From Bacteroidota bacterium (GTDB lineage: Bacteria > Bacteroidota > Ignavibacteria > Kapaibacteriales > Kapaibacteriaceae): a stretch of DNA of 64,000 bases. Position 1 is the stretch's first letter, and each line of letters begins with the position of its first letter. Under the pieces are notes generated by a model. That model was given only the letters and a program-made list of their open reading frames with translations, was not told the origin of the DNA and ran no database searches. The stretch is taken from NCBI GenBank assembly GCA_018266735.1, contig JAFDZT010000004.1, positions 887,728-951,727 of the forward strand, given 5' to 3'. Shown here one piece after another: positions 14,571 through 62,493 of the stretch. The position numbers and the translations under genes were made by a program.

Positions 14571-14622
14571 GTTACGAGTTACAAGTTACAAGTGACAAGT
14601 GACAAGTGACGAGTGACGAGTG
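14571..14622 (+). repeat. Heptamer tandem array GT[G/T]AC[A/G]A, about 7.4 units
   Basis: gttacga gttacaa gttacaa gtgacaa gtgacaa gtgacga gtgacga gtg read directly. It fills the gap between two convergent stops. Confidence 0.95.
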
Positions 14623-14624
14623 CC

Positions 14625-15008
14625 TCACGTACGCTTTCGGAGCTTCCGCTCCACTGTACGGACGGAGGCACTCGTCATATAGATGATGTCGTTCGTGAGC
14701 GCTCTGCAAATGTCGAGTTGATGCCTCGATTCAGAAGAGAGTTCTCCATCGAGAAGATCGAGCCAGTACAGCGTCTCTGACGCTTCCTTCCGAGCGATCT
14801 TGAGCTTGTGAATGAAATCGCTGGTACTCTCTGCATACCACGCCTCTCGGTAGTTCGCTCCAACCGATGCTCCCGAACGCATGAGTTGACGGAGAAGGTC
14901 GCGGTCTGCATCTACCCTCCAGACGTCATGAACGAATGCACGGATATGTACAGCCAACTGCTGCGTCTTGGCGTAGAGCGGTGAACTCTGTGGGTCTCGC
15001 TTCGTCAT
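14625..15008 (-). CDS. Four-helix-bundle protein (23S rRNA intervening-sequence protein / bAvd-like family)
   Basis: Track ORF 14625..15044. ATG 15008 gives MTKRDPQ... LRQLMRSGASVGANYREAWYAESTSDFIHKLKIARKEASETLYWLDLL is the typical signature of this family. Confidence 0.85.
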   Translation of the reverse strand: MTKRDPQSSPLYAKTQQLAVHIRAFVHDVWRVDADRDLLRQLMRSGASVGANYREAWYAESTSDFIHKLKIARKEASETLYWLDLLDGELSSESRHQLDICRALTNDIIYMTSASVRTVERKLRKRT

Positions 15009-15041
15009 ACCCCTGTAGTACCCACATATCCCATTCTGTGA

Positions 15042-15105
15042 CACTCGTCACTTGTCACTTGTCACTCGTAACTCAACTCGTCACTCGTAACTCGTAACTC
15101 GTAAC
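15042..15105 (-). repeat. Heptamer array, reverse-complement orientation, about 9 units
   Basis: cactcgt cacttgt cacttgt cactcgt aactcaa ctcgtca ctcgtaa ctcgtaa ctcgtaa read directly. Inverted relative to 14571-14622. Confidence 0.95.
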
Positions 15106-15116
15106 TAAATTCGTCT

Positions 15117-17123
15117 ATGCTTCACGTCGAACTCTCCCTCCAAGCCGAAGAGGCGATACGCAGATCCGATCGGTCGCTCCTGCTGGCGGCGATCAAGGGG
15201 GCAGAGCGTGCAGTAGAGCAACTTCCCAACGAGCATGGTGCTGCATTGCGTGCCAGCGTGGCCTTTTGGCGCGGCTATGAACACTACCTTGCCGCCAAGT
15301 TCCATGATGCATTGCGGCATCTCGAACAGGCAAGTGCGCTCCTCGAAGCATCAGAGCAGCTCGTGCTTCAAGCGCGGGCCATCACATGCATGGGTGCCTG
15401 CCATCAGTTCATGGGCAGCTTCGACGCGGCTGCCGCGTATATGCGTCAGGCCTTGGCCATGCACGAGCGTGCGAACAACAAGCGTGGCATCGCTACGAAT
15501 ACGGGGAACCTTGGCAATCTGCTCGTTGTGGCCGGACAGTATGAAGAGGCACTTCAGTGCTTCACATCGGCCTTGAGCGTCCACCAAGAGATCGAAGACC
15601 GCGATGGCGTTGCCCGCACCCTCGGCAACATCGGCAACCTCTACAAGGAGACGGAGAACTATACCGAGGCCATGCGCTATTATGAAGAGGCACTGGCCCT
15701 CTATCATGAACTCGAAGATCCTGCAGGGATCGGAAGGGTGGTAGGGAGCATCGGCGGCACATACCTTGCGCTAGGAAAGTACCCCGAGTCGCTCGAGGCC
15801 TATCAGAAGGCCTTGACGCAGTTCGAGGAACTGGGTGATCGACGTCGCATCGCTCGCACCACCACGAACATTGGCATCATCTATAAACAGTTGCACGACT
15901 ACCACACCTGTCAGCAACTCTTTGCCGAAGCGTTGGACATGTTCGAGAAGATCGCCGATCAAGAGGCCATCGCTCACGTGTCCGGCAACATCGGTGAATG
16001 CTATCTCGAACAGAACGAGTACGACGAAGCCTACACCTGGCTCACACGCGCCATTGAACAAACACGGCGTGTTGGGAACCGTCGCGATGAGTCGCACTTC
16101 GTGGCAAACGTGATCGAGGTCTGTTTGAAGCTCGGTCGCATCGACGAAGCACGAACGCTGCTTGAAGAGAACGAACATCTCACAACCGACATCCCAACCA
16201 TCCGCGTGAGCTTCCTGCAATGGCACGCTGCCCTTGCCGCCCTTGATGGCAACAAGTACCATCAACACGAATTGCTCGAACAAGCGCTGGAGATCGCCGA
16301 TCGGTATCTACTGAGCGCGAAGCAGATGGACCTGCATCGTGCGCTCCGCGATCTCTATCGCGAGCGTGGTGATCTACAGGCCTACATCCGGCACGACGAT
16401 CACTACGAGAAGCTCCTCATCGCCATGCAGGGGGAGATGCAGCAGCGCCGACTTGCCGTTGCCATGGTCGAGCGAAAGATCTCGCAAGAGCGTCGCGAGT
16501 CGGAACGTCAGCGCGCCCTGCTCCACAACACGTTGCCTGCGCATATCGCAGAGCGACTGCTCAAGGACGAATCCACGGTGGCAGATCTGCATGAGAACGT
16601 GGGCATCCTCTTTCTCGATATCGTGGCCTTCACGTCGGTGGCATCCGACATGGAGCCTCGCCACCTTGTCGACCTTCTCAATGGGGTGTTCTCGATCTGC
16701 GACGATATCGCACAGCAGTACGCTCTTACGAAGATCAAGACCATTGGCGATGCCTACTTGGCCGTGAGCGGCCTGTCCGACGCATCACAACACCACGTGA
16801 GCAGCCTTGCCCATGCGGCTGTCGATATCCAGCGTCGACTGCAGAGACAGGACCTTGTGGTCCGTATCGGCCTTCACTGCGGTCCGGTGATCGCCGGCGT
16901 GATCGGCAAGGAGCGCCTGCAGTACGACATTTGGGGCGATGCCGTGAATGTGGCCGCCCGAATGGAGCAGACGTGCGAACCGGGACGCATTCAGTGCAGT
17001 GAGGCAATGGCCGAGCAGTTGCTGCATGCGGATGCCGGATCAGCACTCAACGTGCAACTCCGCGGTGAAATGGAGATCAAGGGCAAGGGCCGGATGCGCA
17101 CATACTGGCTCGAAATGGCCTAG
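15117..17123 (+). CDS. TPR-repeat protein with C-terminal class III adenylate/guanylate cyclase domain (paralog 1)
   Basis: 668 aa. TPR-like GNLGNLL/GNIGNLY repeats and a coiled coil (ERRESERQRALLHNTLPAHIAERL). Cyclase motifs FLDIVAFTS, KIKTIGDAYLAVSG, GLHCGPVIAGVIG, YDIWGDAVNVAARME. Confidence 0.9.
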   Translation: MLHVELSLQAEEAIRRSDRSLLLAAIKGAERAVEQLPNEHGAALRASVAFWRGYEHYLAAKFHDALRHLEQASALLEASEQLVLQARAITCMGACHQFMGSFDAAAAYMRQALAMHERANNKRGIATNTGNLGNLLVVAGQYEEALQCFTSALSVHQEIEDRDGVARTLGNIGNLYKETENYTEAMRYYEEALALYHELEDPAGIGRVVGSIGGTYLALGKYPESLEAYQKALTQFEELGDRRRIARTTTNIGIIYKQLHDYHTCQQLFAEALDMFEKIADQEAIAHVSGNIGECYLEQNEYDEAYTWLTRAIEQTRRVGNRRDESHFVANVIEVCLKLGRIDEARTLLEENEHLTTDIPTIRVSFLQWHAALAALDGNKYHQHELLEQALEIADRYLLSAKQMDLHRALRDLYRERGDLQAYIRHDDHYEKLLIAMQGEMQQRRLAVAMVERKISQERRESERQRALLHNTLPAHIAERLLKDESTVADLHENVGILFLDIVAFTSVASDMEPRHLVDLLNGVFSICDDIAQQYALTKIKTIGDAYLAVSGLSDASQHHVSSLAHAAVDIQRRLQRQDLVVRIGLHCGPVIAGVIGKERLQYDIWGDAVNVAARMEQTCEPGRIQCSEAMAEQLLHADAGSALNVQLRGEMEIKGKGRMRTYWLEMA

Positions 17124-17184
17124 AGGATGGCTATGTTCGTAGCTCGTGACACTGACGTCGAACGTATGACGAGGACAGAGACCT

Positions 17185-17655
17185 ATGTCGCAACGCCCAC
17201 TCGAAGAAGACATCAAGAAATGGCACCGTTGGTTCGGTGTGGAGTTCAATAATGAAGCCTGGCGACTGACAGAGTTGCCGTCGCGCACACCGGAGCAAAC
17301 AGAGTCGATGCTCCACCACGCCCATGCAGCGGCCCTGCATTGGTCCACCATCGGCACGGCCGACAATACCGCAAAGGCTTGGGCACTGCTTGCGCAAGCA
17401 CATGCCCTTGCAGGCAATGGCGCCATCGCAACGATGTATGCACAGCAGAACTTCGATCATCTCGCAAAGCGCGAAGCGGCGGACTGGGAGCTGGCCTTTG
17501 CCCACATCATCGTAGCGAATGCCGCACATGCATCCGGAGATCATGCACGGCATGCCGCCTACTATGCCTCTGCCGAAGCACTTGGCAATGCCATCGCCGA
17601 TCCCGAGGATAAAGCGATCTTCCTCCAAACCTTTACCACGGCACCACGTCCATGA
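17185..17655 (+). CDS. Hypothetical helical protein
   Basis: 156 aa with good coding appearance. 4-bp overlap (ATGA) with the downstream MbnP-like gene. I recognise no domain. Confidence 0.6.
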   Translation: MSQRPLEEDIKKWHRWFGVEFNNEAWRLTELPSRTPEQTESMLHHAHAAALHWSTIGTADNTAKAWALLAQAHALAGNGAIATMYAQQNFDHLAKREAADWELAFAHIIVANAAHASGDHARHAAYYASAEALGNAIADPEDKAIFLQTFTTAPRP

Positions 17656-18575
17656 TCACCTTCATCCGTTCCGTTCTTGTCCTTCTCACGATCGCCATTG
17701 CTGCCTCGGCACAAGAGAATCAAGTGTCGTTCACGATCCAAGGTCGGATGGGCGACGCGCCCTTCGTCATCAACACGATGTATCGTACGCTTGCCGACGA
17801 TCTCTACCTCAAGCCCACGTCGTTGCGATACTATCTCTCGCAGATCTCTATCACCCACGATGGTGGCAAGGTGACGCCGTTTCCGAGTCTGTACATCCTT
17901 GTCGACCATTCCGCACCAACGTCGTATCAACTCGGTACGCATCCGATCACGCGTGTGGAGTCCATCACGTTCCATATCGGCGTCGATTCGGCACGCAACC
18001 ATCTCGACCCTGCCACCTATGCGCCCTATCATCCGCTTTCCCCGCAGGATCCGAGCATGCATTGGGGTTGGACGTCGGGCTACAAGTTCATGGCCTACAA
18101 CCTGCTCACCGGCGCCGACACGGCGGCGATGAAGTACGTCACAGAGATCCATGCCCTTGGCGATGCCAACTATCATCGCATCACCGTTGATGTTCCCGTC
18201 GACGCACGCAATGGCAAGGTCTCCATCGATGTGATCGCCAACCTGGCCGAGCTTCTTCGCGGCATCAACGTGAGCAAGAGCCTCTTCGAGCATTCCGATG
18301 AAGGTCCGGCCAAGCTGATGCTGGAGAATGCCGCCCAGCGCGTCTTCTCGGCAGCAACGACCACGTCGGTGTCTGACGCTTCGTTCTCCGAAGATGCATG
18401 GAAGGAGCAAGGCGGCATGGTATCGATCTACGACATGCAGGGCGGACTCATACGTGCAAGCAGTGATGGCGTGCCGTCGATCTTCAATGGTCTGCGCGCC
18501 GGAGTCTACGTCGTGGTCCGTTCAATGGTCGGTCGCACACCGCATCACACCTTGTATCTCCATGATGGTGAGTGA
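17652..18575 (+). CDS. MbnP-like periplasmic (copper-binding family) protein
   Basis: 307 aa. Signal peptide MITFIRSVLVLLTIAIAASAQ. SLRYYLSQISITHDGG, FHIGVDSARNHLDP and MHWGWTSGYKFMAY match my memory of the MbnP family. It is followed by a translationally coupled di-heme peroxidase. Confidence 0.65.
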   Translation: MITFIRSVLVLLTIAIAASAQENQVSFTIQGRMGDAPFVINTMYRTLADDLYLKPTSLRYYLSQISITHDGGKVTPFPSLYILVDHSAPTSYQLGTHPITRVESITFHIGVDSARNHLDPATYAPYHPLSPQDPSMHWGWTSGYKFMAYNLLTGADTAAMKYVTEIHALGDANYHRITVDVPVDARNGKVSIDVIANLAELLRGINVSKSLFEHSDEGPAKLMLENAAQRVFSAATTTSVSDASFSEDAWKEQGGMVSIYDMQGGLIRASSDGVPSIFNGLRAGVYVVVRSMVGRTPHHTLYLHDGE

Positions 18576-19536
18576 TCGATCTCGCTCTGCATGCCTTGCC
18601 GTACTGATCATCAGTGCATGCTGTCTTGTGCAGTGCACCACCACGACCGGCCCCGCACCCGTTGCACCACTCTACGTTGTGCCGAACGGATTTCCGGAGC
18701 CGGTCTTTCCTGCCGACAATCTGCCGAGCGCTGAGCGCATCGCCCTCGGAAAAGCACTCTTCATGAGCACGGCCTTGTCGCGCACGAACACCATTGCATG
18801 TGCAAGCTGTCATCTCGAGCAGTATGCCTTTGCCGACACTGCAACGGTCTCCGTTGGCGTGGAAGGCCGGCGCGGCACACGCAACGCACCTTCGCTCTTC
18901 AACGTGGCCTATCATCCGTACTACATGCGCGAGGGTGGCGTGCCCACGCTTGAGATGCAAGTGCAGGTGCCCATTGCAGAGCACAACGAGTTCGACTTCA
19001 ACATTCTGCAGGTGCAGGCCCGACTTACCGCCGACACGTCCATCGTCAACGCTGCAATGCGTGCCTATGGGCGACCGCCGGATCCATTCGTGATCACGCG
19101 CGCCATTGCCTGTTTTGAGCGCACGTTGCTCAGTGGTTCGTCGCGCGCAGACCGACAGGATCTCACGAGTGCGGAGCAACGCGGACGAGTGCTCTTCGAG
19201 AGCACGCGCACGAATTGCACGTCATGTCATGGCGGCTTCAACTACACTACGTATGCCTTCGAGAACAACGGCCTTGCTTCGGTCTATGCAGATAGCGGAC
19301 GCTATCGCCTGACACGATCAACCGCCGATATCGCGCGGTTCAAGGTTCCGTCGCTCCGTCATGTTGGTGTGACCGCACCGTACATGCACGACGGATCGTT
19401 GCGCACGTTGCGAGATGTGCTCGACCACTACAACAGCGGCGGTCATCTGCACCCGCAGAAGAGTCCGCTCATCCGTCCACTTGGACTCACGCGTCAAGAA
19501 CTCGACGACCTCGAAGCCTATCTTCGCGCACTCTAG
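18562..19536 (+). CDS. Di-heme cytochrome c peroxidase family protein (MbnH/MauG/CCP-like)
   Basis: Track ORF 18328..19536. ATG 18562 gives the lipoprotein signal MMVSDRSRSACLAVLIISACC and overlaps the upstream stop by 14 nt. Two CxxCH motifs (CASCH, CTSCH) and the conserved PSLRHVGVTAPYMHDGS. Confidence 0.9.
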   Translation: MMVSDRSRSACLAVLIISACCLVQCTTTTGPAPVAPLYVVPNGFPEPVFPADNLPSAERIALGKALFMSTALSRTNTIACASCHLEQYAFADTATVSVGVEGRRGTRNAPSLFNVAYHPYYMREGGVPTLEMQVQVPIAEHNEFDFNILQVQARLTADTSIVNAAMRAYGRPPDPFVITRAIACFERTLLSGSSRADRQDLTSAEQRGRVLFESTRTNCTSCHGGFNYTTYAFENNGLASVYADSGRYRLTRSTADIARFKVPSLRHVGVTAPYMHDGSLRTLRDVLDHYNSGGHLHPQKSPLIRPLGLTRQELDDLEAYLRAL

Positions 19537-19545
19537 AACTGGACC

Positions 19546-21582
19546 ATGGCAACCACGCTTGACGATCTCCTGCATCGTGCCGATCATGCTGCGAACACGC
19601 ACGACATCGATCTGCTGCGCACACTGGTCAACGAGGCGCGCGCCATCCAACCATCACTTGCCAATGTTGACGCTGTACGCGTTGACGCGGAGTGCGCAAG
19701 GTGGGAAGGAATTCGATCTGCCATCATGGGAGATCTCCCTGCCGCCCTCGCATCCTTTGAGCAAGCCCTTTCGCATTTCATGGCCATCGAGCACGAGAGC
19801 GGCATCTCTCGCGCTATGGGCAACATTGCCCTTATCCACTCCGATATGGGTGACTATTCCACAGCGCTTACGTGGTATCACCGTGCATTGGAGCGAAGCG
19901 AGCAACAAGGAGACGAGGCCACGATGGCCATCGTGCTCGGCAATATTGGCGTCACGCATTCAAGATCGGGAGCTCAGAACGAGGCGCTCACGTGGTATCA
20001 CCGTTCGCTTGAGATCCATCAACGTCGCGGAGATGCCGCCAGCGCTGCGCGACTCATGGGGAATATCGGCGTCATCTACGGTCGTATCGCCGACTTCACC
20101 GCCGCCTTGCAATGGTTGTTCGAAGCTCTTGCCACGCATGAGTCGATGGGCAACCGCCGAAACTCGGCCATCGTCATGGGGAGCATCGGACATGTGTACA
20201 CGGTGATGGGCGACTATGCTACGTCGATCGACTGGTACATGAAGGCGTTGGTGATCGAAGAAGAGATGGGAAACACGCACGGCATTGCTGTAACGACAGG
20301 GAACATCGGTTCGGTCTACGGCGATGTTGGTGATGCGCGCGAAGCACTCGTCTGGCTCCGTCGCGCCCACGAAATGCACGTGACCAGTGGCAACAAGCAC
20401 AGTGCCGCTCATGCGCGCGGGAACATCGCCGAGGCACTCATCGAGTTGGGCGAACTCGATGCCGCGGATCGGGAGTTGCGCGATGTCATCACGATCTCCG
20501 ATGAACTGGGACAGCGCAGTTTGAATGTGCGTGCGCGAAACACGCTCGCACGACTCCTCTTACGTCGCTCGTCGATCGACGAGGCTCGCATGCTGATCGA
20601 TGGTATCTCGCACCTCGTGTGGGAAGAGCCGCTTCCCTCGATCGCTGCACACCAGAACCGTAGTACGCTTGCCTCGATCGATGGCGATGTGACACTGGCG
20701 GAACGTGAGCTTGTGCGAGCACTGGAGATCGCCCGGCAGCATGGGATCCGGCGCGAAGAAGCACTGATCCACAAGGCCTTGCGAGACCTCTGCCGCCGTC
20801 AGTCACGACTTGCCGAGAGCATCGAGCATGCCGATGCTTTCGAAGCGATCAACGATGAACTCCTTGGAGAGCAACAACGACGTCGCGTCGACCTCCTCGT
20901 CGTCGAACACACCATGGCCAATGAACGTCAGCGCGCCGAGCGTCAGCGCGCTCTCCTGTACAACCTCCTTCCGGAGTCCATCGCCCATCGCATCCTGAAC
21001 GGCGAGACCGATGTGGCCGACGACTTCGATGATGCCGGCGTGCTCTTCATCGATGTGGCGAACTTCACTCGCACCGCACATGGGAAGCGCACGTCGGAGG
21101 TGCTCACCATGTTGAACGACCTCTTCACACGATTCGACACCATCGCCGAAGAACACGGCATCACAAAGGTGAAGACCATTGGTGACGCATGGCTCGGTGT
21201 GTCCAATGCCCCCACCACCCTACCGCAGCATCATCATGCCCTTGCGCTTGCAGCGTGCTCCATGCTTGCATCGAGTCGATCCGTTGGCGTCGACGTACGC
21301 CTCGGTCTTCACTCCGGTCCCATCTCTGCCGGCGTGATCGGTACATCCCGTCGCACATGGGATGTATGGGGCGATACGGTGAACGTGGCATCGCGCATGG
21401 AATCGACGAGTGACGTTGGTCGCATTCATGTAAGCGACGCCTTCGCCCATGCCTTGGCCAACGACCTGCGCACACAACCGACGTCGACATCGCTTCGCAT
21501 CGTTTCACGGGGCGAGGTGCAGGTGAAAGGGAAAGGCACGATGACAACGCACTGGCTTGAACACATCAAGGAGGCAGGGTGA
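19546..21582 (+). CDS. TPR-repeat protein with class III adenylate/guanylate cyclase domain (paralog 2)
   Basis: 678 aa with the same architecture as paralog 1: GNIALIH/GNIGVTH TPR repeats, ERQRAERQRALLYNLLPESIAHRI, FIDVANFT, KVKTIGDAWLGVS, GLHSGPISAGVIG, WDVWGDTVNVASRME. Confidence 0.9.
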   Translation: MATTLDDLLHRADHAANTHDIDLLRTLVNEARAIQPSLANVDAVRVDAECARWEGIRSAIMGDLPAALASFEQALSHFMAIEHESGISRAMGNIALIHSDMGDYSTALTWYHRALERSEQQGDEATMAIVLGNIGVTHSRSGAQNEALTWYHRSLEIHQRRGDAASAARLMGNIGVIYGRIADFTAALQWLFEALATHESMGNRRNSAIVMGSIGHVYTVMGDYATSIDWYMKALVIEEEMGNTHGIAVTTGNIGSVYGDVGDAREALVWLRRAHEMHVTSGNKHSAAHARGNIAEALIELGELDAADRELRDVITISDELGQRSLNVRARNTLARLLLRRSSIDEARMLIDGISHLVWEEPLPSIAAHQNRSTLASIDGDVTLAERELVRALEIARQHGIRREEALIHKALRDLCRRQSRLAESIEHADAFEAINDELLGEQQRRRVDLLVVEHTMANERQRAERQRALLYNLLPESIAHRILNGETDVADDFDDAGVLFIDVANFTRTAHGKRTSEVLTMLNDLFTRFDTIAEEHGITKVKTIGDAWLGVSNAPTTLPQHHHALALAACSMLASSRSVGVDVRLGLHSGPISAGVIGTSRRTWDVWGDTVNVASRMESTSDVGRIHVSDAFAHALANDLRTQPTSTSLRIVSRGEVQVKGKGTMTTHWLEHIKEAG

Positions 21583-21842
21583 CAACGGCACAACGGTCAA
21601 CGGGCAGACCTCTCTAGGCCCCACGAACAGGCGTGTATGAGGACAAGCTCTTCTCTACCGTCTACGTTGGAAGTGCACTGCTCTTCCTGAGAATGTATCG
21701 GCTCCAATGTCTTCATCTTCGGCGCCGGAGTGCACCGTCTCTTCGTGCTCGTCTTTCCCGCATGGGTGCTGCTGGTGGGCGTGGCGATCTTGATCACGAT
21801 CCTGCGGATACTGGAAGTTGGGAAGGAAATGGAAGAGTAATG

Positions 21843-21891
21843 CAGAATACAGAATACAGAATTCAATGTCAGAATCTGAGAATACAGAATC
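21843..21891 (+). repeat. Second heptamer family, CAGAATA-like, about 7 imperfect units
   Basis: cagaata cagaata cagaatt caatgt cagaatc tgagaata cagaatc read directly. Confidence 0.85.
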
Positions 21892-21902
21892 TCACGAAGT
21901 GC

Positions 21903-21934
21903 CACTCGTCACTTGTCACTTGTCACTTGTCACT
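21903..21934 (-). repeat. Heptamer array (rc orientation), about 4.5 units
   Basis: cactcgt cacttgt cacttgt cacttgt cact read directly. Confidence 0.95.
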
Positions 21935-21969
21935 AAAAATGGCGGTCCACCTTTCAGCGAACCGCCATT
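21934..21969 (-). terminator. Intrinsic terminator for the minus-strand NmrA-like gene
   Basis: On the minus strand, AATGGCGGT (loop of 14 nt) ACCGCCATT is followed by TTTTT. The 9-bp stem pairs 21938-21946 with 21961-21969. Confidence 0.7.
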
Positions 21970-21979
21970 CTCATAATCT

Positions 21980-22073
21980 CACGCAGTGTCCCACGCAGTG
22001 TCCCACTCCGTGTCCCACGAAGTGTCCCACGCAGTGTCCCACGCAGTGTCCCACATAGTGTCCCACGCAGTGT
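21980..22073. repeat. 12-bp tandem repeat (CACGCAGTGTCC-like), about 8 units, in the 3' UTR of the NmrA-like gene
   Basis: Read directly. The units differ only in the 3-nt stretch following the CAC (GCA/TCC/GAA/ATA). The array abuts the stop codon at 22075-22077. Confidence 0.95.
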
Positions 22074-22074
22074 A

Positions 22075-23013
22075 TCAGACTGGGATGAGCGACTTGTTCT
22101 CTTCCAGCCACGATGCATAGCTCTGCAGTTCCGGATTCAGTGCACGCACGATGGAGAGATCGCGTGCGCCCACATAGTCGTCATTGAACTCGGCCTTGAA
22201 CTGGAACATGTTGCCCATGTCGTCGGCACCGGGGAACCCGAAGCTGCGGTAGACGGATGCAGGCACGGCATTGTAGACCACGTCTTCGCCCAGCGCCTTC
22301 GTCAACCCTGCCGCCATTTCATTCCCTGTGAGGTGCTCACCGGCAATGCTGATCGTCTTACCGATGGTGGATGGATCCTTGAAGATGGCGAAGGCCACCT
22401 TGCCGATATCCTTGACGGCGATGCCGGGCAACTTCTTGTCGGCCATGGGCATGGTAAGTGCCAGCTTGCCATCGGCGCCACGTGCAGGACCAGCGCCGAA
22501 GTAGATGAAGTTCTCCCAATAGAAGGCCGTGTTGAGGATCGTGCGTGGCAACCCGTCGAAGTACGCATTTGCCTCACCCTTGGCATCGAAGTGCGGCACC
22601 TTGTACTCGCCTTGCAGCGTTGGCATGCGATCGTCGGACAGCGGGATCCACTTGCGTGTGTCTTCGAGCGACGACCAGATGATGTGCTTCACACCGGCCG
22701 TGCGAGCCGCATTGGCCATGTTCTTTGCTGTTTCCTTCTCCTTTGCTGGCGAGAAGTGATCCCAGAAGAACGTCACGAAGAACGCACCATACGCTCCCTG
22801 AAGAGCTGCAGCGATGCTGGCCTCGTCGTTCACATCGGCGGCCACCACTTCGGCGCCCGCTGCTGCAAGGGCCTTGGCCTTGTCGGAATTCACATCACGC
22901 GTGATGGCACGCGCTGCATACTCCCCCGACGTGTCGGCAAGAATGGCTCGAACAAGGGCGCCGCCTTGGGCACCGGTTGCGCCAACAACGGCGATGATCT
23001 TTTTGTCGGACAT
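22075..23013 (-). CDS. NmrA-family NAD(P)-binding protein
   Basis: Track ORF 22075..23082. ATG 23013, preceded by AGGAG, gives MSDKKIIAVVGATGAQGGALVRAIL (Rossmann GxxGxxG). The remainder is NmrA-like. Confidence 0.85.
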   Translation of the reverse strand: MSDKKIIAVVGATGAQGGALVRAILADTSGEYAARAITRDVNSDKAKALAAAGAEVVAADVNDEASIAAALQGAYGAFFVTFFWDHFSPAKEKETAKNMANAARTAGVKHIIWSSLEDTRKWIPLSDDRMPTLQGEYKVPHFDAKGEANAYFDGLPRTILNTAFYWENFIYFGAGPARGADGKLALTMPMADKKLPGIAVKDIGKVAFAIFKDPSTIGKTISIAGEHLTGNEMAAGLTKALGEDVVYNAVPASVYRSFGFPGADDMGNMFQFKAEFNDDYVGARDLSIVRALNPELQSYASWLEENKSLIPV

Positions 23014-23061
23014 GGAAAGCTCCTGTTTGTATATGTGTTGTAACACAAACATAGGGAGGAA

Positions 23062-23099
23062 GTGACAAGTGACAAGTGACAAGTGACGAGTGACGAGTG
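23062..23099 (+). repeat. Heptamer array, about 5.4 units
   Basis: gtgacaa x3, gtgacga x2, gtg read directly. It lies in the divergent region between the NmrA-like gene and cyclase paralog 3. Confidence 0.95.
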
Positions 23100-23154
23100 G
23101 TGGTCAGCCTGAAAGTGCGCAAATTGCTGGGGGTAGGCCGGGTGGTCCGGCGCG

Positions 23155-25059: not shown

Positions 25060-25072
25060 AATCGTAGCTGGT

Positions 25073-25135
25073 TTGTCACTCGTCACTTGTCACTGGTAAC
25101 TCAACTCGTCACTGGTCACTTGTAACTCGTCACTT
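25073..25135 (-). repeat. Heptamer array (rc orientation), about 9 imperfect units
   Basis: ttgtcac tcgtcac ttgtcac tggtaac tcaactc gtcactg gtcactt gtaactc gtcactt read directly. It contains the stop codon (25130-25132) of the minus-strand membrane-protein gene. Confidence 0.95.
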
Positions 25136-26005
25136 AGACCTAAAGCTTTCTGCCATCGTCGCTTCACTAAATCCTTCCGGCACTTCTCCCGTCGTCGCAT
25201 AGCGATACAGTCCTGCAAGGAAGATCTGACTCAGCGTGCTTTGCACGATGCCCACACAAACGAGAGCCGCAAAGCCGATCGCAAAGAGCGTGAGCGTGAA
25301 CGCCAGGGAGTCGGCAGCCTGTGCGAAGTAGATGGCGATCACCGTTGCGAACACCACGAGCACGAATCCAACGAACCCTACCACCCCGAGGGCCATGTTC
25401 CCTACCAGCCCTTCGCCCCATGTCTTCTTCAGGAGTTGCACCGAGCTCTTCACGGCATCCTTCGGACCCAGACCTTGGGCGGCAACGATCGGCACAACGA
25501 AATACGTGGCGATGGCCCATGCGGCACCGATGAGTTTGATCACGATCCGACCGACCACGCCCAATCGCTGCTCGATCATGGAAAGGACAGCGCCCACGAA
25601 AGCAGCAACGGCCGACCATGCAAGGATCTGCGGGAGCCGCGCATTCGCCATCCGGAATCCATCGGCAACTGTTGGGTCCTGCCCTTCAAAGCGCATCAGC
25701 GCACACGACACCAGCGCCGTCCCGAAGTACGTCGTCAACGCATACTCCACATAGTACACGCCGAACACCATCACTGCCGTCAGCGCCGTGGCCGCCACGT
25801 CCATCGTCCCATCGCGGAACGTCCCATCAAAGGCCAGATACGCCATCTCCTGCAACGAAGGGATCAGGAAGGAGGCAAGGAGGACCGTGGCCAGCACGGC
25901 AATGGCACCCACGCCATTCAACACCGGAAACACCATCATCTCCGGATCTGCCTTCAACACATTCCAGCTCTCACGAGCGATCGCAAAGCCACGTTTGATC
26001 TTCAT
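25130..26005 (-). CDS. Multi-pass membrane protein (DUF6159-like)
   Basis: 291 aa. The N-terminus MKIKRGFAIARESWNVLKADPEMMVFPVLNG is followed by about 6 hydrophobic helices. Confidence 0.7.
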   Translation of the reverse strand: MKIKRGFAIARESWNVLKADPEMMVFPVLNGVGAIAVLATVLLASFLIPSLQEMAYLAFDGTFRDGTMDVAATALTAVMVFGVYYVEYALTTYFGTALVSCALMRFEGQDPTVADGFRMANARLPQILAWSAVAAFVGAVLSMIEQRLGVVGRIVIKLIGAAWAIATYFVVPIVAAQGLGPKDAVKSSVQLLKKTWGEGLVGNMALGVVGFVGFVLVVFATVIAIYFAQAADSLAFTLTLFAIGFAALVCVGIVQSTLSQIFLAGLYRYATTGEVPEGFSEATMAESFRSK

Positions 26006-26076
26006 AGGGGAGTCACTATGTGAATTGTTTTGATGAAATTAGTTGATTGAGGGTTACGAACGAATCGCAAAGACGA

Positions 26077-28098: not shown

Positions 28099-28144
28099 CA
28101 ACGTCCTGTTCGATTGTCGAACAGCTTATTCATCAGCACGATCT

Positions 28145-28366
28145 CTAAACGCACTGGTCACGTATTTCTCGGATAATGACCTCATACAGCCTTGCGATAG
28201 CAAACGCCTCACGTGCTGAACTGCATTCCTCAAGGCAGACCTCCTCTTCGATTCGATCTTCTGACCATGCATGTCCAGTACGTGTCCATGACTCCCGGAG
28301 GTAGGCAAGTGCCGTGAGGAGATTGTCGGCGTATTCTTTGGGCAGGTGAAGGGTGAAGAATTGCAT
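28145..28366 (-). CDS. Small hypothetical protein (73 aa), convergent with the DUF2075 gene
   Basis: ATG-initiated ORF with helical-looking sequence MQFFTLHLPKEYADNLLTALAYLRESW... No recognised domain and a weak RBS. Confidence 0.35.
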   Translation of the reverse strand: MQFFTLHLPKEYADNLLTALAYLRESWTRTGHAWSEDRIEEEVCLEECSSAREAFAIARLYEVIIREIRDQCV

Positions 28367-28483
28367 GTGGCAAGTTCACCGGAAACCGGACGATGTACCG
28401 GACAGAACCTATCCGGTTGTTACGCATGCGTAACATACCCTCCCCTTGCAACCTTTCCGCCCTGCCTGGCGTTGTGCGGCTTC

Positions 28484-28866: not shown

Positions 28867-28929
28867 TTGTCACTTGTCACTACTTACTCTACTCGTCACT
28901 TGTCACTTGTCACTTGTCACTTGTCACTT
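28867..28929 (-). repeat. Heptamer array (rc orientation), about 9 units with one degenerate stretch
   Basis: ttgtcac ttgtcac tacttactctac tcgtcac ttgtcac ttgtcac ttgtcac ttgtcac tt read directly. It contains the stop codon (28924-28926) of the minus-strand lipoprotein gene. Confidence 0.95.
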
Positions 28930-33727: not shown

Positions 33728-35374
33728 TTGATCGCACGTCATATCACGTTCGTCGTGTTGATCGTGAGTGGCGTCTTCAGTGCAACTGCGCAACGAGCAT
33801 GGATCGTTGCTCCGCAAGTTGGCGCCACCTTCGCATCCGCATCGTTTCAACAGCTCGGTCCGCTCGTTCTTCCAGAACGGGCGACCGGGCTTTCGTCGTC
33901 TACATCATGGATGGCCGGCATGCGTGGCGCCATGCGCCTTCCGCTCTTCTCGCGCTTCTCCCTCGTTCCCAGCGTCGGCATCTCATACTCAAACGCCGCA
34001 GTCGTCACAACAGAGCCAACGACCTTTGCCATCTACGGCAACCTTGTTCCCGGCACATTTGAGCACACGTACACATTCTCGACCATGGCCGTGGAAGGTG
34101 GCATGGAGGCACGGTACACCTTGTTCCCGTTCCTGGATGTAGCGGCCGGCGTAGGATCGTTCATCACCACCTCGATGTACGGCACACACGACATGACCAT
34201 CACCGATCCCGCGGGAGTAACGTTCACCGATGGTTCATCAACACAACGTCGTGCCGAAGGCGCTATCCCTGAACGCAACACCTTCGTGCCGTTCGCGACG
34301 GCATCGCTTATCGTTCCGGTGAAGGTCAGCAAATGGAACGTCGACGTGGAAGCAGGCTATCGCACCACGCTCACGTCGATGGTGAGCACAGCAACGCTCA
34401 CCACACAACAGGTCTTTGCACGCATTGGCGTGCGCTTCGATCTCGCATCGATCGACGAGGCCGAGTCGCCGTACGAAACGCTTCGCATGCCGACCACCAC
34501 GCCCGTGCTCGAGCCAACAACAACGCCCGCGCCTGTGCTGCCGACGCTGCGCACCGTGCCGACCACGGACATTCCTCCTTCCCTCCCTCCATTGGCCGTT
34601 GTCGCACCATCACGTCCGGCGCCGTCTGTGCTCGCTCTCTGCAATGTGGCGTTCCGACAATCGAACGGACGTGTGTCTGAGCGTGGCGTGGTGCGCATGG
34701 AGCGCACACTCATGCAGACCATCGATCACGGTCCGAACGATGCGGCCATCTCGCGCATCGATACGATCCTTCGTGCCGATCCTCCTATCGTGTTGCTCCG
34801 TCCGCTCGTCTCCACCGACGACAGCGTTGCGCGTTGGTCGTTGCGCATCGTTGTGTCCGACACACTCCTCTTCGAACGCGACGGCCTTGGCGCACCTCCG
34901 CGCGAGATCGAATGGGACTGCGCCACCATCTCGCGATCGCTCTTCGAACTGCTCATTCGCGATAGTGCTGTTGTACATGTGGATGCGGTTGGGAAACAAG
35001 GCGGCAAGGCCGTTTCGGCACCAACGACCATTCGTCTTGTCGAAGGTCGACGCATGGCATCACTCGACACGTCGCGCATCAACGTCACCATCTGGGGCTA
35101 CAACGTCAACGCCGTCGACCTTCCCGAGTGGGCACGCACCACCATTCGATCGTTGCGTCGTGCCGCACGCACGGCCACGTCGGTCTCCATCTATGGCAGT
35201 GCCGATGGAGATGGCGAACGCAACGTCAATCAGCGCATCGCCGAGCAACGTGCACAAAAGGCCGCAACCGCACTCGGTCAGCCCAACGCTCGCATCGATA
35301 TCGATCCCATCCCTTCGGCGCAGGCGGTGAGGAATGAGAGGGATAGGAGGATAAGGATCGTGTTGAGGAAGTAA
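33728..35374 (+). CDS. Outer-membrane protein, N-terminal beta-barrel-like region plus C-terminal OmpA-like domain
   Basis: 548 aa. Signal peptide MIARHITFVVLIVSGVFSATAQ. Pro/Thr-rich linker. C-terminus VSIYGSADGDGERNVNQRIAEQRAQKAATALG...RRIRIVLRK. Same architecture as 10104..12026. Confidence 0.7.
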   Translation: MIARHITFVVLIVSGVFSATAQRAWIVAPQVGATFASASFQQLGPLVLPERATGLSSSTSWMAGMRGAMRLPLFSRFSLVPSVGISYSNAAVVTTEPTTFAIYGNLVPGTFEHTYTFSTMAVEGGMEARYTLFPFLDVAAGVGSFITTSMYGTHDMTITDPAGVTFTDGSSTQRRAEGAIPERNTFVPFATASLIVPVKVSKWNVDVEAGYRTTLTSMVSTATLTTQQVFARIGVRFDLASIDEAESPYETLRMPTTTPVLEPTTTPAPVLPTLRTVPTTDIPPSLPPLAVVAPSRPAPSVLALCNVAFRQSNGRVSERGVVRMERTLMQTIDHGPNDAAISRIDTILRADPPIVLLRPLVSTDDSVARWSLRIVVSDTLLFERDGLGAPPREIEWDCATISRSLFELLIRDSAVVHVDAVGKQGGKAVSAPTTIRLVEGRRMASLDTSRINVTIWGYNVNAVDLPEWARTTIRSLRRAARTATSVSIYGSADGDGERNVNQRIAEQRAQKAATALGQPNARIDIDPIPSAQAVRNERDRRIRIVLRK

Positions 35375-35493
35375 AAGAGAAGTAAAAGAGAAGTGAAAGA
35401 GAATGAAAGAGAATGAAAGAGAAGTGAAAGAGAAGTAAACAAGAAGTGAAAGAGAAGTGAAAGACAAGTAAACAAGAAGTAAAGGAGAAGTAG
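35368..35493 (+). repeat. 11-bp tandem array (GAAGTGAAAGA-like), about 11 units
   Basis: gaagtaaaaga gaagtaaaaga gaagtgaaaga gaatgaaaga ... read directly. The first unit contains the stop codon of 33728..35374. Confidence 0.95.
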
Positions 35494-35627
35494 ATCTGGT
35501 TCAATTGCAGAATGCGTTCGAACAGGACAATTCGAGATCGCTGATTCGTCCCTCGCTCTTCGCAGATGCGGCCGTGCGTCTCCTCGCAATTCGGCGACTC
35601 GACCGCCATTTTGCAACAGAGCAAGGT

Positions 35628-35708
35628 CTACTTCTCTTTTACTTCTTGTTTACTTCTTGTTTACTTCTTTCTTACTTCTTTCTTACTTCTCTTTTACTTC
35701 TCTTTCAC
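35628..35708 (-). repeat. Same 11-bp array in reverse-complement orientation, about 7 units
   Basis: ctacttctctttt acttcttgttt acttcttgttt acttctttctt acttctttctt acttctctttt acttctctttcac read directly. It contains the stop codon (35694-35696) of the minus-strand anti-sigma gene. Confidence 0.95.
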
Positions 35709-57236: not shown

Positions 57237-57300
57237 TCTCACTTGTCACTTGTCACTCGTCACTCGTCACTCGTCACTCGTCACTTGTCACTTGTCACTT
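57237..57300 (-). repeat. Heptamer array (rc orientation), about 9 units, filling the whole recF-DUF721 intergenic gap
   Basis: tctcac ttgtcac ttgtcac tcgtcac x4 ttgtcac ttgtcac tt read directly. The recF stop codon (57281-57283) and its last 5 codons (VTSDK) lie inside the array. Confidence 0.95.
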
Positions 57301-58394: not shown

Positions 58395-59510
58395 TCAGAT
58401 CTTCACCGGCATCACCAACATCAGCAGCGAGTCGTTGTCGGCTCCCGGCTTGATGAGGACGGCTCTGATCGGCGTCGAGAACGTCATCTGCACGTTCAGG
58501 TCCGGATCGTCATCCGCAGTGATGTTCTTGATCGCTTCTTCGAGGAATCGGTAATTGAAGCCCACCTCGAACGTGTCGTGCGAGAATTCGCAAGGGATCG
58601 TCTCTGTTCCTTTTCCGCCGGAATCCTCATCCTCGGAGTGGACGGCCAGCACGCGCTCGCTCATGCGGAAGCGCACGTGACGGGTGTTCGTGTTCGCGAA
58701 CAGCGAGACGCGCTTGATGGCGCTCAGCACTTCGCGTTGGTTCACGACCAGCGTCTTGTCGTTGTCCGACGGGATCACGTTCTGATAGGGAGGATACTTC
58801 TCGTCGATCACGCGGGTGGTGATCGTTTGCGAGGAGATCGTGAAGCGAGCATGCGTGCGGCTCACTTCCATCGACACTTCACTGTCGACCTTCTTGAGCA
58901 GGTCCACGGCGCGTGCGGGAATGATCACATCGAGCTCGTCCGGGAAGCGGTCTTCACCGCGGATGATCACGCGCGACAGGCGGAATCCGTCCGTGGCAAC
59001 GGCCGTGACCATGTTGGAGGCGAACTGGAAGAACACGCCTGTCATCGACGGACGGTACTCTTCCGTGCTCACAGCGAACACGGTCTTGTTCGCGATGCGC
59101 TGCATCTCCTCTTTCGAGAAGTCCGCCTTGGTCGATTCAGGGAAAGGAGGAATGGCGGGGAACTCATTCGCATCGAGTCCCTTCATTTCGTACGTCCCCG
59201 TAGGCGTCCGCACAGAGATGAGGGCCGAGTCCTCGTTGGCCGACACTTCCACGGAACCGGCATTGCCGAGTTCCTTGATCAGGTCGTTGAATTGACGTGC
59301 AGGGACAAGAACTTCCCCATCCTGTTCTCCGGCGACCGGGATCGTCAACGAGATCGTGATCTCTTGATCGGTCGCATGGAACGTGAGGTCTGTTCCCGCC
59401 AGGACCACGTGAACGTGCTCCAGGACAGGGATCGTGGACTTCGCGGGAATGGCTGGAAGGATCTTCTGCAGCGCCTTTTGGAGCTCAGGCAGTGCTACGG
59501 TGAATTTCAT
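58395..59510 (-). CDS. dnaN: DNA polymerase III beta sliding clamp
   Basis: ATG 59510 within track ORF 58395..59909 gives MKFTVALPELQKALQKILPAIPAKSTIPVLEHV. 371 aa with typical three-domain clamp length and sequence. Confidence 0.95.
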   Translation of the reverse strand: MKFTVALPELQKALQKILPAIPAKSTIPVLEHVHVVLAGTDLTFHATDQEITISLTIPVAGEQDGEVLVPARQFNDLIKELGNAGSVEVSANEDSALISVRTPTGTYEMKGLDANEFPAIPPFPESTKADFSKEEMQRIANKTVFAVSTEEYRPSMTGVFFQFASNMVTAVATDGFRLSRVIIRGEDRFPDELDVIIPARAVDLLKKVDSEVSMEVSRTHARFTISSQTITTRVIDEKYPPYQNVIPSDNDKTLVVNQREVLSAIKRVSLFANTNTRHVRFRMSERVLAVHSEDEDSGGKGTETIPCEFSHDTFEVGFNYRFLEEAIKNITADDDPDLNVQMTFSTPIRAVLIKPGADNDSLLMLVMPVKI

Positions 59511-61049: not shown

Positions 61050-61325
61050 ATGAAGACCTATACGGCCCATGTGACCGTTTCCCTCCGCCGTGCCATTCTC
61101 GATGTCCAAGGCAAGACGGTCGAACGCGCACTGCACTCTCTGCACATGCCGGCACTGTCGAACGTGCGCATCGGCAAATACGTCGAGCTCACCGTTCAGG
61201 CGCCCGACGAGGACCGTGCACGGGAACTCGTGGATGATGCATGTAAGAAATTGCTTTCCAATCCGGTGATGGAAGACTATTCGTTCCGGTTGGAAGAGCG
61301 CGTTGCCAGCGGAGCAGTGGCATGA
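61050..61325 (+). CDS. purS: Phosphoribosylformylglycinamidine synthase subunit PurS
   Basis: ATG 61050 gives MKTYTAHVTVSLRRAILDVQGKTVERALHSL. About 91 aa, overlapping the purQ start. Confidence 0.9.
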   Translation: MKTYTAHVTVSLRRAILDVQGKTVERALHSLHMPALSNVRIGKYVELTVQAPDEDRARELVDDACKKLLSNPVMEDYSFRLEERVASGAVA

Positions 61326-62011
61326 ACATTGGAGTTGTGACCTTTCCGGGAAGTAACTGCAATGCGGACGCAGAGTTCGCCGCAGCGCTCGACGGATCGA
61401 CGGTGCATCGGCTGTGGCATAAGGACACGACGCTCCCGTCGGCCCTCGATGCCATCATCCTTCCCGGCGGCTTCAGTTATGGCGACTACCTCCGCACCGG
61501 CGCTATCGCTCGCTTCTCGCCCATCATGCAGGAAGTGATCGGCTTTGCCAACAAGGGCGGCATCGTGATGGGCATCTGCAACGGATTTCAGATCCTCACC
61601 GAATGCGGACTCTTGCCCGGCGCGTTGATCCGCAACGCCAATCTGAGCTTCGTCTGCAAGGACGTCTACCTTCGCGTCGAGAACGCCGAGACGAGCTTCA
61701 CGCGCAGCACCACGAAGAACAGTGTGCTCCGCATTCCCATTGCCCACGGAGAAGGCAGATACACCGCCCCTCCCGAGGTGATCGACGAACTTGAATCCGA
61801 TCAACGCGTGGTCTTCCGCTACGTGACCCCTGCCGGCGACGATGCTCCCGAAGCGAATCCGAACGGTAGCCTTCACAACATTGCGGGTATCTTGAACAAG
61901 GCAGGGAACGTGATGGGTCTGATGCCCCATCCCGAACGCGCTGCGGACCCGCTGAACGGATCGACAGACGGTCTGTCCGTATTCACCAGTATTGCACTTT
62001 CGCGGAGTTAA
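61322..62011 (+). CDS. purQ: Phosphoribosylformylglycinamidine synthase glutaminase subunit PurQ
   Basis: 229 aa. [35 protein letters not shown], and MGLMPHPER. Confidence 0.95.
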
Positions 62012-62013
62012 TC

Positions 62014-62184
62014 ATGCCAAGCCTAGGAATGCCCGAGCTGTTGCTGATCGCCTTGGTCATCGTTGTCTTGTTCGGCGCCAAGCGCATCCCCGATCTGATG
62101 AAGGGTCTTGGTTCCGGTATCAAGGAATTCAAGAAGGCGGCAAGTGGCGAGGATGAGAAGCCGACAGAAAAGAAGCCCGAGTGA
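62014..62184 (+). CDS. tatA: Twin-arginine translocase TatA/E-family protein
   Basis: 56-aa ORF below the track cutoff, hand translated: [56 protein letters not shown]. Confidence 0.9.
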
Positions 62185-62217
62185 TCGTGTTGATCGTTCC
62201 CCTTTTGCAGGTGTACC

Positions 62218-62487
62218 GTGTTTGACGTAGGCGGCGGCGAACTCCTGCTGATCCTTCTGGCCGTCCTCTTGCTCTTCGGACCAAAGAAGATCCCTGAAGT
62301 TGCCCAGATGGTGGGCAAAGGCATCAGGCAGTTTCGTAAAGCTCAAGAAGATCTCACCCAACAGATCCGCGACATCAGCGCAGAGACAGCGTCGATCGTC
62401 GAGGAGCCCGTGCGTGTGAAACCGGAATTGCGAAGTGAAGAAAGAAGAAAAGAAAGTGACGAGTTACAAGTGACGAGTGACGAGTGA
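62218..62487 (+). CDS. Second Tat-family protein with a TatB-like N-terminus
   Basis: 89 aa with a GTG start. MFDVGGGELLLILLAVLLLFGPKKIPEVAQMVGKGIRQFRKAQ. The last codons (LQVTSDE) and the stop are encoded by a heptamer array. Confidence 0.8.
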   Translation: MFDVGGGELLLILLAVLLLFGPKKIPEVAQMVGKGIRQFRKAQEDLTQQIRDISAETASIVEEPVRVKPELRSEERRKESDELQVTSDE

Positions 62488-62493
62488 CAAGTA
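62456..62493 (+). repeat. Heptamer array, about 5.4 units
   Basis: gtgacga gttacaa gtgacga gtgacga gtgacaa gta read directly. It spans the TatB-like stop and ends 5 nt before the gatA ATG. Confidence 0.95.

Follow-up and report, generated by a model that had tools for sequence, protein, structure and literature searches.

Heptamer repeat arrays in a Kapaibacterium genome as candidate arms of hairpin elements carrying a four-helix-bundle protein gene

We analysed a window of 64,000 nucleotides from a Bacteroidota bacterium of the Kapaibacteriaceae (assembly GCA_018266735.1, contig JAFDZT010000004.1, positions 887,728 to 951,727), in which eight tandem arrays of a 7-nt unit, GTKACRA, are dispersed among protein-coding genes. 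Two of these arrays lie on either side of a small gene for a four-helix-bundle (4HB) protein (Table 1). Tandem Repeats Finder reported period-7 arrays at all eight sites, with 4.6 to 9.6 copies each, and the double unit GTKACRAGTKACRA matched 38 times in the window, compared to 0.00 expected from 100 dinucleotide-preserving shuffles. The eight arrays listed by an initial annotation, which was made from the letters of the DNA, are thus real. Parsing of the arrays gave 414 bp in 52 units, in which positions 1, 2, 4, 5 and 7 were invariant. Position 3 was G in 42 units and T in 10, and position 6 was A in 27, G in 23 and C in 2, in agreement with the earlier remark that unit variation falls at positions 3 and 6. 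A looser search (at least three units, one mismatch allowed per unit) found no GTKACRA arrays in the window beyond these eight. The arrays had been judged not to be CRISPR, and their 7-nt units indeed run head to tail without spacers, as opposed to repeats of 23-50 bp with unique spacers. As heptamer tandem repeats that are longer than chance and mostly intergenic, they fit the general description of the short tandemly repeated repetitive (STRR) sequences and the long simple-sequence repeats (LSSRs). No Rfam matches and no rRNA were found in the window. Arrays 2 and 5 have the same higher-order layout, with four units, GTTGA and four more units, which implies copying of whole arrays and not independent growth.

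Table 1. Repeat arrays and the 4HB protein gene in the 64-kb window (window coordinates)
Feature	Position	Strand	Size	Context
Array 1	14571..14622	+	7 units	Left (5') arm of the 4HB cassette; starts right after the stop of gene 14091-14570 and ends 2 nt before the 4HB stop on the other strand
4HB protein gene	14625..15008	-	127 aa	In the predicted hairpin loop; PF05635, TIGR02436
Array 2	15042..15105	-	~9 units	Internal GTTGA interruption; right (3') arm of the 4HB cassette; upstream of both the 4HB ATG (by 33 nt) and cyclase gene 15117 (by 11 nt)
Array 3	21903-21934	-	4.6 units	GTGACRA on the - strand; part of a composite at 21839..21934 (-) made of (AATACAG)n-type heptamers and a spacer, then array 3
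12-mer array CACGCAGTGTCC	21980..22073	+	7.8 copies	Beside array 3
Array 4	23062..23099	+	5.4 units	Left arm of the (+,-) pair bracketing cyclase gene 23155-25059
Array 5	25073..25135	-	~9 units	Right arm around cyclase gene 23155-25059; gives the TGA stop of DUF6159 gene 25130-26005
Array 6	28867..28929	-	~9 units	One degenerate stretch; solo; gives the stop of TTHB210-like gene 28924-29700
Inverted 11-mer arrays GAAGTAAAAGA	35368-35492 and 35629-35705	+ and -		Around a 136-nt loop without a recognisable open reading frame; 'empty' repeat-stem hairpin
Array 7	57237..57300	-	9 units	Solo; recF stops inside it; the dciA start follows after 4 nt
Array 8	62456..62493	+	5.4 units	Solo; a TatA/B-family gene stops inside it; the gatA ATG follows after ~3 nt

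All eight arrays were intergenic or clipped only the last codons of a gene, as first described. The TGA of the first or second array unit serves as the stop codon of the genes ending at 25130, 28924 and 57281, and the gene ending at 62487 uses a TGA further inside array 8. The gene ending at 14570 stops directly at the edge of array 1. Because 7 is coprime to 3, the GTGACRA strand presents a TGA in all three frames within 21 nt, and genes running into an array thus stop at array TGAs. The complementary strand (TTGTCAC) is open in all frames and reads LVTCHLS. A simple terminator scan of window positions 14000-30000 found no terminator-like site at any array; a canonical hairpin with a T-run lies at 21938-21975, separate from the adjoining array 3.

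Arrays 1 (+) and 2 (-) form an inverted pair around the 4HB gene. The encoded protein matched the Pfam family PF05635 ('23S rRNA intervening sequence protein') with an E value of 9.7e-16 and 58.4 bits (cut-off 33.8), and TIGR02436 with 74.2 bits (cut-off 24). A profile of its homologues matched the PDB entries 2RLD (E 1.3e-37) and 2GSC, each a pentameric four-helix-bundle structure with five chains. There was no PADLOC match for the protein. In a 566-nt RNA, arrays 1 and 2 were predicted to pair into a stem of ~50 bp that closes the open reading frame (ORF), in both the minimum free energy (MFE) and the centroid structures (dG -239.6 kcal/mol, z -8.7). The element is flanked by the gene of a 159-aa protein (14091-14570) on one side and the cyclase gene starting at 15117 on the other, and hence it is not an insertion in rRNA. 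With the accessory protein Avd of diversity-generating retroelements (DGRs) in mind, we also looked at these two neighbours, and neither is a reverse transcriptase, the window as a whole not having been scanned systematically for such genes.

Arrays 4 (+) and 5 (-) bracket the cyclase gene 23155-25059 with the same polarity as arrays 1 and 2. In a 2.1-kb RNA (23040-25150), positions 23062-23099 were predicted to pair with 25077-25133 over ~35 bp in the MFE structure. Pairing between arrays of opposite orientation had been proposed in the initial annotation, and the predicted structures of these two pairs are in line with that proposal. The inverted pairs themselves, and the link to PF05635 genes and rRNA intervening sequences, had gone unseen. 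The arrays at 15042 and 23062, formerly placed in divergent promoter regions, are better explained as hairpin arms, namely the right arm of the 4HB cassette and the left arm of the cyclase pair.

We compared the window with syntenic loci of relatives whose GyrB is 96-99% identical, taken from NCBI, JGI and Logan assemblies (L numbers denote loci outside the window). Window proteins had no matches in look-ups by exact sequence, and the relatives were identified via homologues. The closest named relative was Candidatus Kapaibacterium sp. MAG_AAO_H10.30 (GCA_044224925.1), with a GyrB identity of 99%. The other named GyrB matches were Kapabacteria or Ignavibacteria, and Kapaibacterium is placed within Bacteroidota in the NCBI taxonomy. 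An array was present at the recF-dciA junction in every relative, with 6, 3, 3 and ~13 units compared to 9 in the window, between nearly identical flanks; its unit had drifted to GTGAGAA in L127. The suspicion that these are slipped-strand hypervariable loci is borne out by the range of 3 to ~13 units at this one orthologous junction. Array 8, between tatB and gatA, was shared with the 99% relative and lacking in the 96-98% relatives, which carry a different segment at this site. In L121, a 7-unit array lies between a CCP gene and a cyclase gene, where the window has a 10-bp spacer. Furthermore, L121 has three copies of the composite (AATACAG)n...(ACTYGTC)n seen at window positions 21839-21934, two of them in frame inside cyclase ORFs in the stop-free orientation. 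Closely related genomes thus differ in copy number by multiples of 7 nt and in the presence or absence of whole arrays.

At the window 4HB site, both arms were kept in four of four relatives, with differing loop contents. The orthologous ORF is intact in the window, carries an internal deletion in L238 and is truncated at the 5' end in L121, and the loop of L233 consists of 226 nt of unrelated sequence. The arms therefore persist while the ORF is intact, deleted internally, truncated or absent, which means that either the arms outlast the ORF or the ORF entered a pre-existing hairpin. No 4HB remnant was found in the loops of L233, of the 11-mer hairpin (Table 1) or of 21597-21905. Paralogous TPR-adenylate/guanylate cyclase genes are interleaved with arrays in the region 15117-25059, with three such genes in the window and at least four in L121. 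Since both the number of cyclase genes and their junctions differ between relatives, these data suggest that arrays take part in rearranging the cyclase family.

To place the cassette in a wider context, 80 4HB genes were drawn from metagenome contigs, of which 71 could be scored by comparing the 200 bp upstream with the reverse complement of the 200 bp downstream. The median inverted score was 19, compared to a direct-repeat score of 9. Scores of 15 or more were obtained for 49 of the 71 4HB genes and for none of 111 control ORFs taken from these contigs (Mann-Whitney p 3.6e-21), and the arms had a period of 7 or 14 in 31 of the 49. Within 250 bp of 4HB genes, a total of 37 kb, Tandem Repeats Finder located 129 arrays of period 7 or 14 (3.5/kb), as opposed to 23 in the remaining 201 kb (0.11/kb), a difference of ~30-fold. 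The arm units varied with the lineage (ATTTTGG, TTAGTGA, AAGCGGA, AGTGAAA, GATTTAC, AATTGCG, and ACGAGTT, which is GTTACGA in another register), and on several contigs the unit flanking the 4HB gene was repeated at further sites. None of the 40 cassettes checked lay in rRNA. The 4HB gene was co-oriented with its upstream neighbour in 54 of 63 cases and with its downstream neighbour in 47 of 62, with very short gaps; these genes sit wedged within operons. The 5' arm was purine-rich and C-poor, with more G than C in 42 of 48 cassettes (p 1e-7) and a composition of 38% A, 27% T, 25% G and 10% C (cassettes L129-L208). One possibility is that this polarity gives the loop ORF a Shine-Dalgarno-like leader. 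In one contig (L130), a tRNA-Sec gene at 1184-1278 lies 9 nt upstream of the 5' arm of the cassette.

Other collections gave similar results. Among the 4HB genes of viral contigs, 8 of 13 scored 17 or more. A tblastn search of 72,556 PLSDB plasmids gave 4HB matches dominated by Nostoc and other cyanobacteria, and all ten copies examined (from Nostoc punctiforme, N. flagelliforme, Dolichospermum, Planktothrix, Anabaena cylindrica, Gloeocapsa, Chlorohelix, Treponema and Bernardetia) had heptamer arrays on both sides. For example, plasmid pNPUN02 of Nostoc punctiforme (59135-59506) carries (AATTCGC)4.5, the 4HB gene and (GCGAATT)4.5 in this order. These data show that, across different phyla, 4HB genes located outside rRNA lie between heptamer arrays in inverted orientation. 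The median identity of 4HB proteins was 63% within a unit group and 39% between groups, and the flanking genes were mostly unrelated. Cassettes with the same unit thus combine related proteins with unrelated flanks, indicating that gene and arms travel together, and the two occur together in unrelated genomic contexts.

The GTGACRA unit itself is widespread. (GTGACRA)4 was found in at least 120 stretches of a set of species-representative genomes. Pyrinomonadaceae and Blastocatellia dominate the matches listed, which also include Chloroflexia, Thermomicrobiales, Clostridia, Ignavibacteria/Kapaibacterium, Verrucomicrobiota, Planctomycetota and others. Opposite arrays no more than 1 kb apart formed 34 (+,-) pairs and one (-,+) pair among the matches listed from foreign loci. 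Since this ratio does not depend on the strand read, 5'-GTGACRA...loop...TYGTCAC-3' reflects a genuine rule of structure, with the purine-rich arm nearly always in first place in paired arrays. In Pyrinomonadaceae and Clostridia, the (+,-) hairpins tend to follow A-rich sequence and to precede T-rich sequence. The 4HB genes in these loci were missed by single-sequence phmmer searches and found with a profile, and ORFs were called by a simple longest-ORF rule. Both 4HB genes present in the listed loci adjoin arrays. The Gemmataceae cassette has a heptamer and an architecture identical to those of the window cassette and is predicted to fold likewise, and the Pyrinomonadaceae 4HB gene has a degenerate 3' arm. 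Inverted arrays also surround other genes, in one Chloroflexia and one Kapaibacterium locus. Many of the GTGACRA loops, among them those of five Pyrinomonadaceae loci, have nested inverted arrays of other heptamers (such as CGTGAAT and GTGATGA), forming hairpins within hairpins.

Three sets of solo arrays were used to examine orientation relative to genes: 104 in other genomes, 26 on viral contigs and 12 in Kapaibacterium loci. The arrays on viral contigs were mostly solo and without a 4HB gene, and were uninformative on a vector. The initial annotation had noted that in six of eight cases the GTGACRA strand is the sense strand of the gene whose 3' end the array follows. This count stands for the window, but solo arrays at 3' ends in other genomes were sense in 36 cases and antisense in 28, and the bias was only weak in this wider sample, so that a sense-strand rule as a general feature was rejected. 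Next to gene ends, 64 solo arrays lay at 3' ends and 38 at 5' ends, and those upstream of starts were sense in 22 cases and antisense in 16. Strand-specific mRNA models are therefore weakened for solo arrays by their nearly random orientation. Arrays within ORFs were antisense in 26 cases and sense in 2, a trivial bias because the GTGACRA strand carries stop codons.

Taken together, we favour, with a probability of roughly 0.55, the interpretation that the eight arrays are paired, orphaned or copied arms of a family of intervening-sequence-like hairpin elements, the complete form of which carries a 4HB gene. The complete element would consist of (GTKACRA)n, a small gene of the 4HB/S23p type and (TYGTMAC)n, as at 14571-15105. 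Its two arms would pair into a duplex of ~50 bp closing the whole ORF, as in the 4HB-bearing intervening sequences of 23S rRNA, although here between protein-coding genes. Arms may also bracket other genes, such as the cyclase gene 23155-25059, enclose a non-coding loop or stand alone. By analogy with the rRNA intervening sequences, transcripts spanning a pair would fold into long double-stranded RNA, and the array stems are probably RNase III substrates; such cuts would separate neighbouring cistrons and define transcript ends. Solo arrays may be orphaned or copied arms that spread by recombination or duplication and were resized by replication slippage. They would survive where they are tolerated, that is, in intergenic DNA, at the very 3' end of a gene, or within a reading frame if antisense and hence free of stops.

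Several observations weigh against this interpretation. Six of the eight window arrays do not flank a 4HB gene, and four of these are solo. More generally, most arrays have no partner or nearby 4HB gene, and it is by inference that the model would cover them. Among the (GTGACRA)4 loci listed, only 2 of 120 contain a 4HB gene, so arrays far outnumber 4HB genes. The window 4HB gene is antisense to both neighbours, unlike most cassettes, and the metagenomic sample was drawn with one conserved peptide pattern. GTGACRA flanks 4HB proteins that are only 28% identical, which argues against a strict pairing of protein clade and unit; a model in which every 4HB clade recognises a unit of its own loses weight accordingly. 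In the cell, long-range pairing over loops of 0.4 to 2 kb may fail to occur. The ORF may have been lost from the hairpin or inserted into it, and either direction is compatible with the relatives. No empty site, target-site duplication or mobility enzyme was found, and all four orthologous loci keep both arms; mobility of the element is suggested by the co-occurrence of gene and arms in different contexts.

The same observations were weighed against other explanations. Ordinary LSSRs or STRRs could arise and be resized by replication slippage in tolerated non-coding DNA and be functionless, with 4HB genes merely tending to land in or near repeats. The copy-number steps of whole 7-nt units, the drift to GTGAGAA, the nearly random orientation to neighbouring genes and the excess of arrays over 4HB genes all fit such an origin, and heptamers are the commonest long simple-sequence repeat class in prokaryotes according to the summary of Mrazek 2007 given in PMC4679880. 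However, independent slippage predicts many units, yet one unit with five invariant positions occupies eight sites in 64 kb, and arrays 2 and 5 share their higher-order layout. The ~30-fold enrichment of inverted heptamers beside 4HB genes and the polarity of 34 to 1 are also at odds with slippage, and the unit is kept between genomes at 52-74% protein identity, where neutral DNA would be scrambled. We consider this explanation unlikely. An assembly artefact, which the initial annotation had itself raised beforehand, or a CRISPR-like array has next to no chance of being correct. Short-read contigs often start or end inside arrays (L123, L128, L238), which explains assembly breaks, but the arrays are spacerless with a 7-nt unit and recur at orthologous positions in at least five independent assemblies from NCBI, JGI and Logan, and thus they are not artefacts.

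Regulatory roles appear rather improbable to us as the primary explanation. By analogy with what was proposed for the TAACTGA repeats of Beggiatoaceae and the recF/recO heptamers of Nostoc, the arrays could act in cis by binding a sequence-specific nucleic-acid-binding factor, for which the pentameric Avd-like 4HB protein is itself a candidate, and in this way regulate transcription or translation of the genes next to them. Arrays 7 and 8, both in sense orientation, stop 3-4 nt short of start codons, arrays 2 and 4 lie in 5' leaders, and five unit positions are kept across phyla. In addition, PF05635 is related to the DGR accessory protein Avd (PMC10053308), reporter data from Nostoc suggest that heptamers modulate expression via a partner (bioRxiv 10.1101/2022.06.06.494920), and a 4HB gene flanked by its own sites would fit autoregulation. 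On the other hand, the sense bias upstream of starts is weak (22 to 16), and copy number and even presence vary between near-identical strains at housekeeping junctions. Arrays persist where the 4HB ORF decays, and GTGACRA accompanies 4HB proteins of only 28% identity. A role of the paired arrays at gene boundaries as transcriptional insulators, or as intrinsic terminators acting in both directions, is very unlikely. The A-rich 5' and T-rich 3' flanks of the (+,-) hairpins in Pyrinomonadaceae and Clostridia and the excess of solo arrays at 3' over 5' ends (64 to 38) are in keeping with such a role. However, no terminator was detected at the arrays in the scan of 14000-30000, and beside array 3 this function falls to a distinct canonical hairpin with a T-run. 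Stems of 21-50 bp enclosing loops as long as 2 kb are unlike terminators, and a solo array is unable to fold on itself.

Some other repeats and genes were observed in the window. The pair of 11-mer arrays at 35368..35705 is predicted to fold into a stem of ~80 bp, and a purine-rich stretch related to the 11-mer, GTGAAGAAAGAAGAAAAGAAA, lies at 62430-62455 directly 5' of array 8. The 12-mer family occurs also in the Kapaibacterium metagenome-assembled genome (L103, 6072-6185), and CACGCAGTGTCC is found in frame within the cyclase ORF 1388-3322 of L121, where it encodes SHSVSHPVSHEV; the 12-mer represents a second family of repeats invading protein loops that tolerate them. Between two + strand ORFs, at 31953-31998, there is a GC-rich array of an 11-mer, CCCGGCATCTG (4.2 copies), that is partly self-complementary (CCCGGCAGCTGCCGGG). 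The gene at 26047-28098 encodes a 683-aa Schlafen-group-3 helicase-domain protein with a full-length match to PDC-S41, a candidate defence family of PADLOC (E 3.5e-276). This gene resides in a low-GC island (26001-28000, GC 0.49) between arrays 5 and 6 and was therefore probably acquired horizontally. A second low-GC stretch is found at 44001-46000 (GC 0.46).

Defence and mobile-element operons also host 4HB cassettes on plasmids of cyanobacteria and Chloroflexota (five loci: L253, L254, L255, L259, L261). The plasmid cassettes lie between cas2 and cas1 in Anabaena cylindrica, between DrmD and PglX in Planktothrix, between DUF1156 and Swt1-HEPN in Gloeocapsa and Chlorohelix, and beside XisH in Nostoc punctiforme. 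Heptamers stand next to recF in three unrelated lineages, namely a (TTAGTGA)15-4HB cassette just upstream on the Bernardetia plasmid, array 7 at the recF stop in the window, and (TTTTGAA)3 upstream in Nostoc 7120 according to the preprint; this may be a coincidence.

Heptamer repeats such as STRRs, LSSRs and TAACTGA have been catalogued for decades without an agreed origin or function, and the same holds for the function of S23p/4HB proteins; the present data tie the two together. Most sampled 4HB genes sit inside hairpins with inverted heptamer-array stems, outside rRNA and usually between co-directional genes, including those of defence operons. A broader proposal, which we advance tentatively and regard as doubtful, is that PF05635 4HB genes and heptamer arrays constitute a widespread, unrecognised class of selfish 'operon-intervening' hairpin elements outside rRNA. 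Copied or orphaned arms would then be the source of STRR-type arrays in cyanobacteria, Bacteroidota, Acidobacteriota, Chloroflexota and others, and the partner long sought for these repeats, binding or propagating them, would be the pentameric Avd-like 4HB protein. The model of RNase III-processed intervening elements in mRNAs, with the 4HB protein as candidate repeat partner, can be tested in culturable hosts, for example Nostoc punctiforme. Because the arrays are hypervariable, they are also of practical value for annotation, for assembly breakpoints and for strain typing. Our searches of the open-access literature and bioRxiv found no paper on 4HB genes outside rRNA in heptamer-array hairpins or on GTGACAA arrays, and no report linking STRRs to 4HB genes or a hairpin architecture. 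A paper on the Coxiella intervening sequence (PMC4990558) was the only one found on the link between 4HB genes and heptamers or on the repeat sequence.

The elements were finally compared with known repeat systems. Like the STRRs and LSSRs (Mrazek 2007), the GTKACRA arrays are tandem heptanucleotides that are mostly intergenic, dispersed and hypervariable. The resemblance to STRRs pointed out in the initial annotation goes further than was noticed there, since heterocystous cyanobacteria have the same architecture, and 4HB genes of Nostoc, Dolichospermum and Anabaena are flanked by heptamer arrays as in the window. The classical STRR units of these cyanobacteria are CCCCAGT, TTGGTCA and CAACAGT. 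However, the unit here is GTKACRA and the host is a Kapaibacterium of the Bacteroidota, so that the window arrays share neither the STRR unit nor the cyanobacterial host. In a Nostoc preprint, heptamer repeats had modest regulatory effects via a partner that was left unidentified (bioRxiv 10.1101/2022.06.06.494920). The TAACTGA repeats are intergenic in marine Beggiatoaceae, cyanobacteria and Bacteroidetes (MacGregor 2015, PMC4679880). They provide stops on the forward strand, overlap the ends of upstream ORFs, lie just upstream of starts and occur within ORFs only in reversed orientation (PMC4679880). Their spread across phyla is patchy, relatives differ by 7-nt indels, a translational role was proposed, and only one inverted repeat was noted in that genome (PMC4679880). 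The GTKACRA arrays show a similar positional behaviour. However, the units differ (the GTTACGA variant gives TAACTCG on the other strand and shares only TAACT with TAACTGA), and no link to 4HB genes has been described for TAACTGA.

The elements also resemble REP (repetitive extragenic palindrome) and BIME (bacterial interspersed mosaic element) sequences, Correia elements (also called NEMIS, Neisseria miniature insertion sequences) and miniature inverted-repeat transposable elements, in that all of them are short, dispersed, intergenic inverted repeats, with forms ranging from gene-bearing to empty. Some Correia elements are RNase III substrates. Unlike in these families, the arms here are 7-nt tandem arrays and the cargo is a 4HB protein rather than a transposase. 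As tandem arrays of a 7-nt unit, the arms can pair in any register. No transposase, RAYT or target-site duplication was identified for the heptamer elements.

The closest parallel is with the S23p/4HB-bearing intervening sequences of 23S rRNA, of the type seen in Leptospira, Coxiella burnetii, Brucella and Xanthomonas, which lie in helix 9, 25 or 45. The window element differs from them in its position between protein-coding genes and in its stems, which consist wholly of tandem heptamers. In addition, the GTKACRA repeat is dispersed as solo arrays and brackets other genes, and excision by RNase III is here proposed by analogy. In both systems, however, a PF05635/TIGR02436 ORF lies in the loop of a long stem formed by terminal inverted repeats, in the window at 14571-15105. 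In the intervening sequence of Coxiella burnetii, the S23p ORF is located in the loop of a 28-bp terminal stem that is cut by RNase III (PMC4990558). This sequence also contains tandem GACAGAT heptamers in the stem region, in numbers that differ between strains, and it has been retained as an RNA element although its ORF is decaying (PMC4990558). The window element and its orthologues, in which both arms persist and the state of the ORF varies, match this description.

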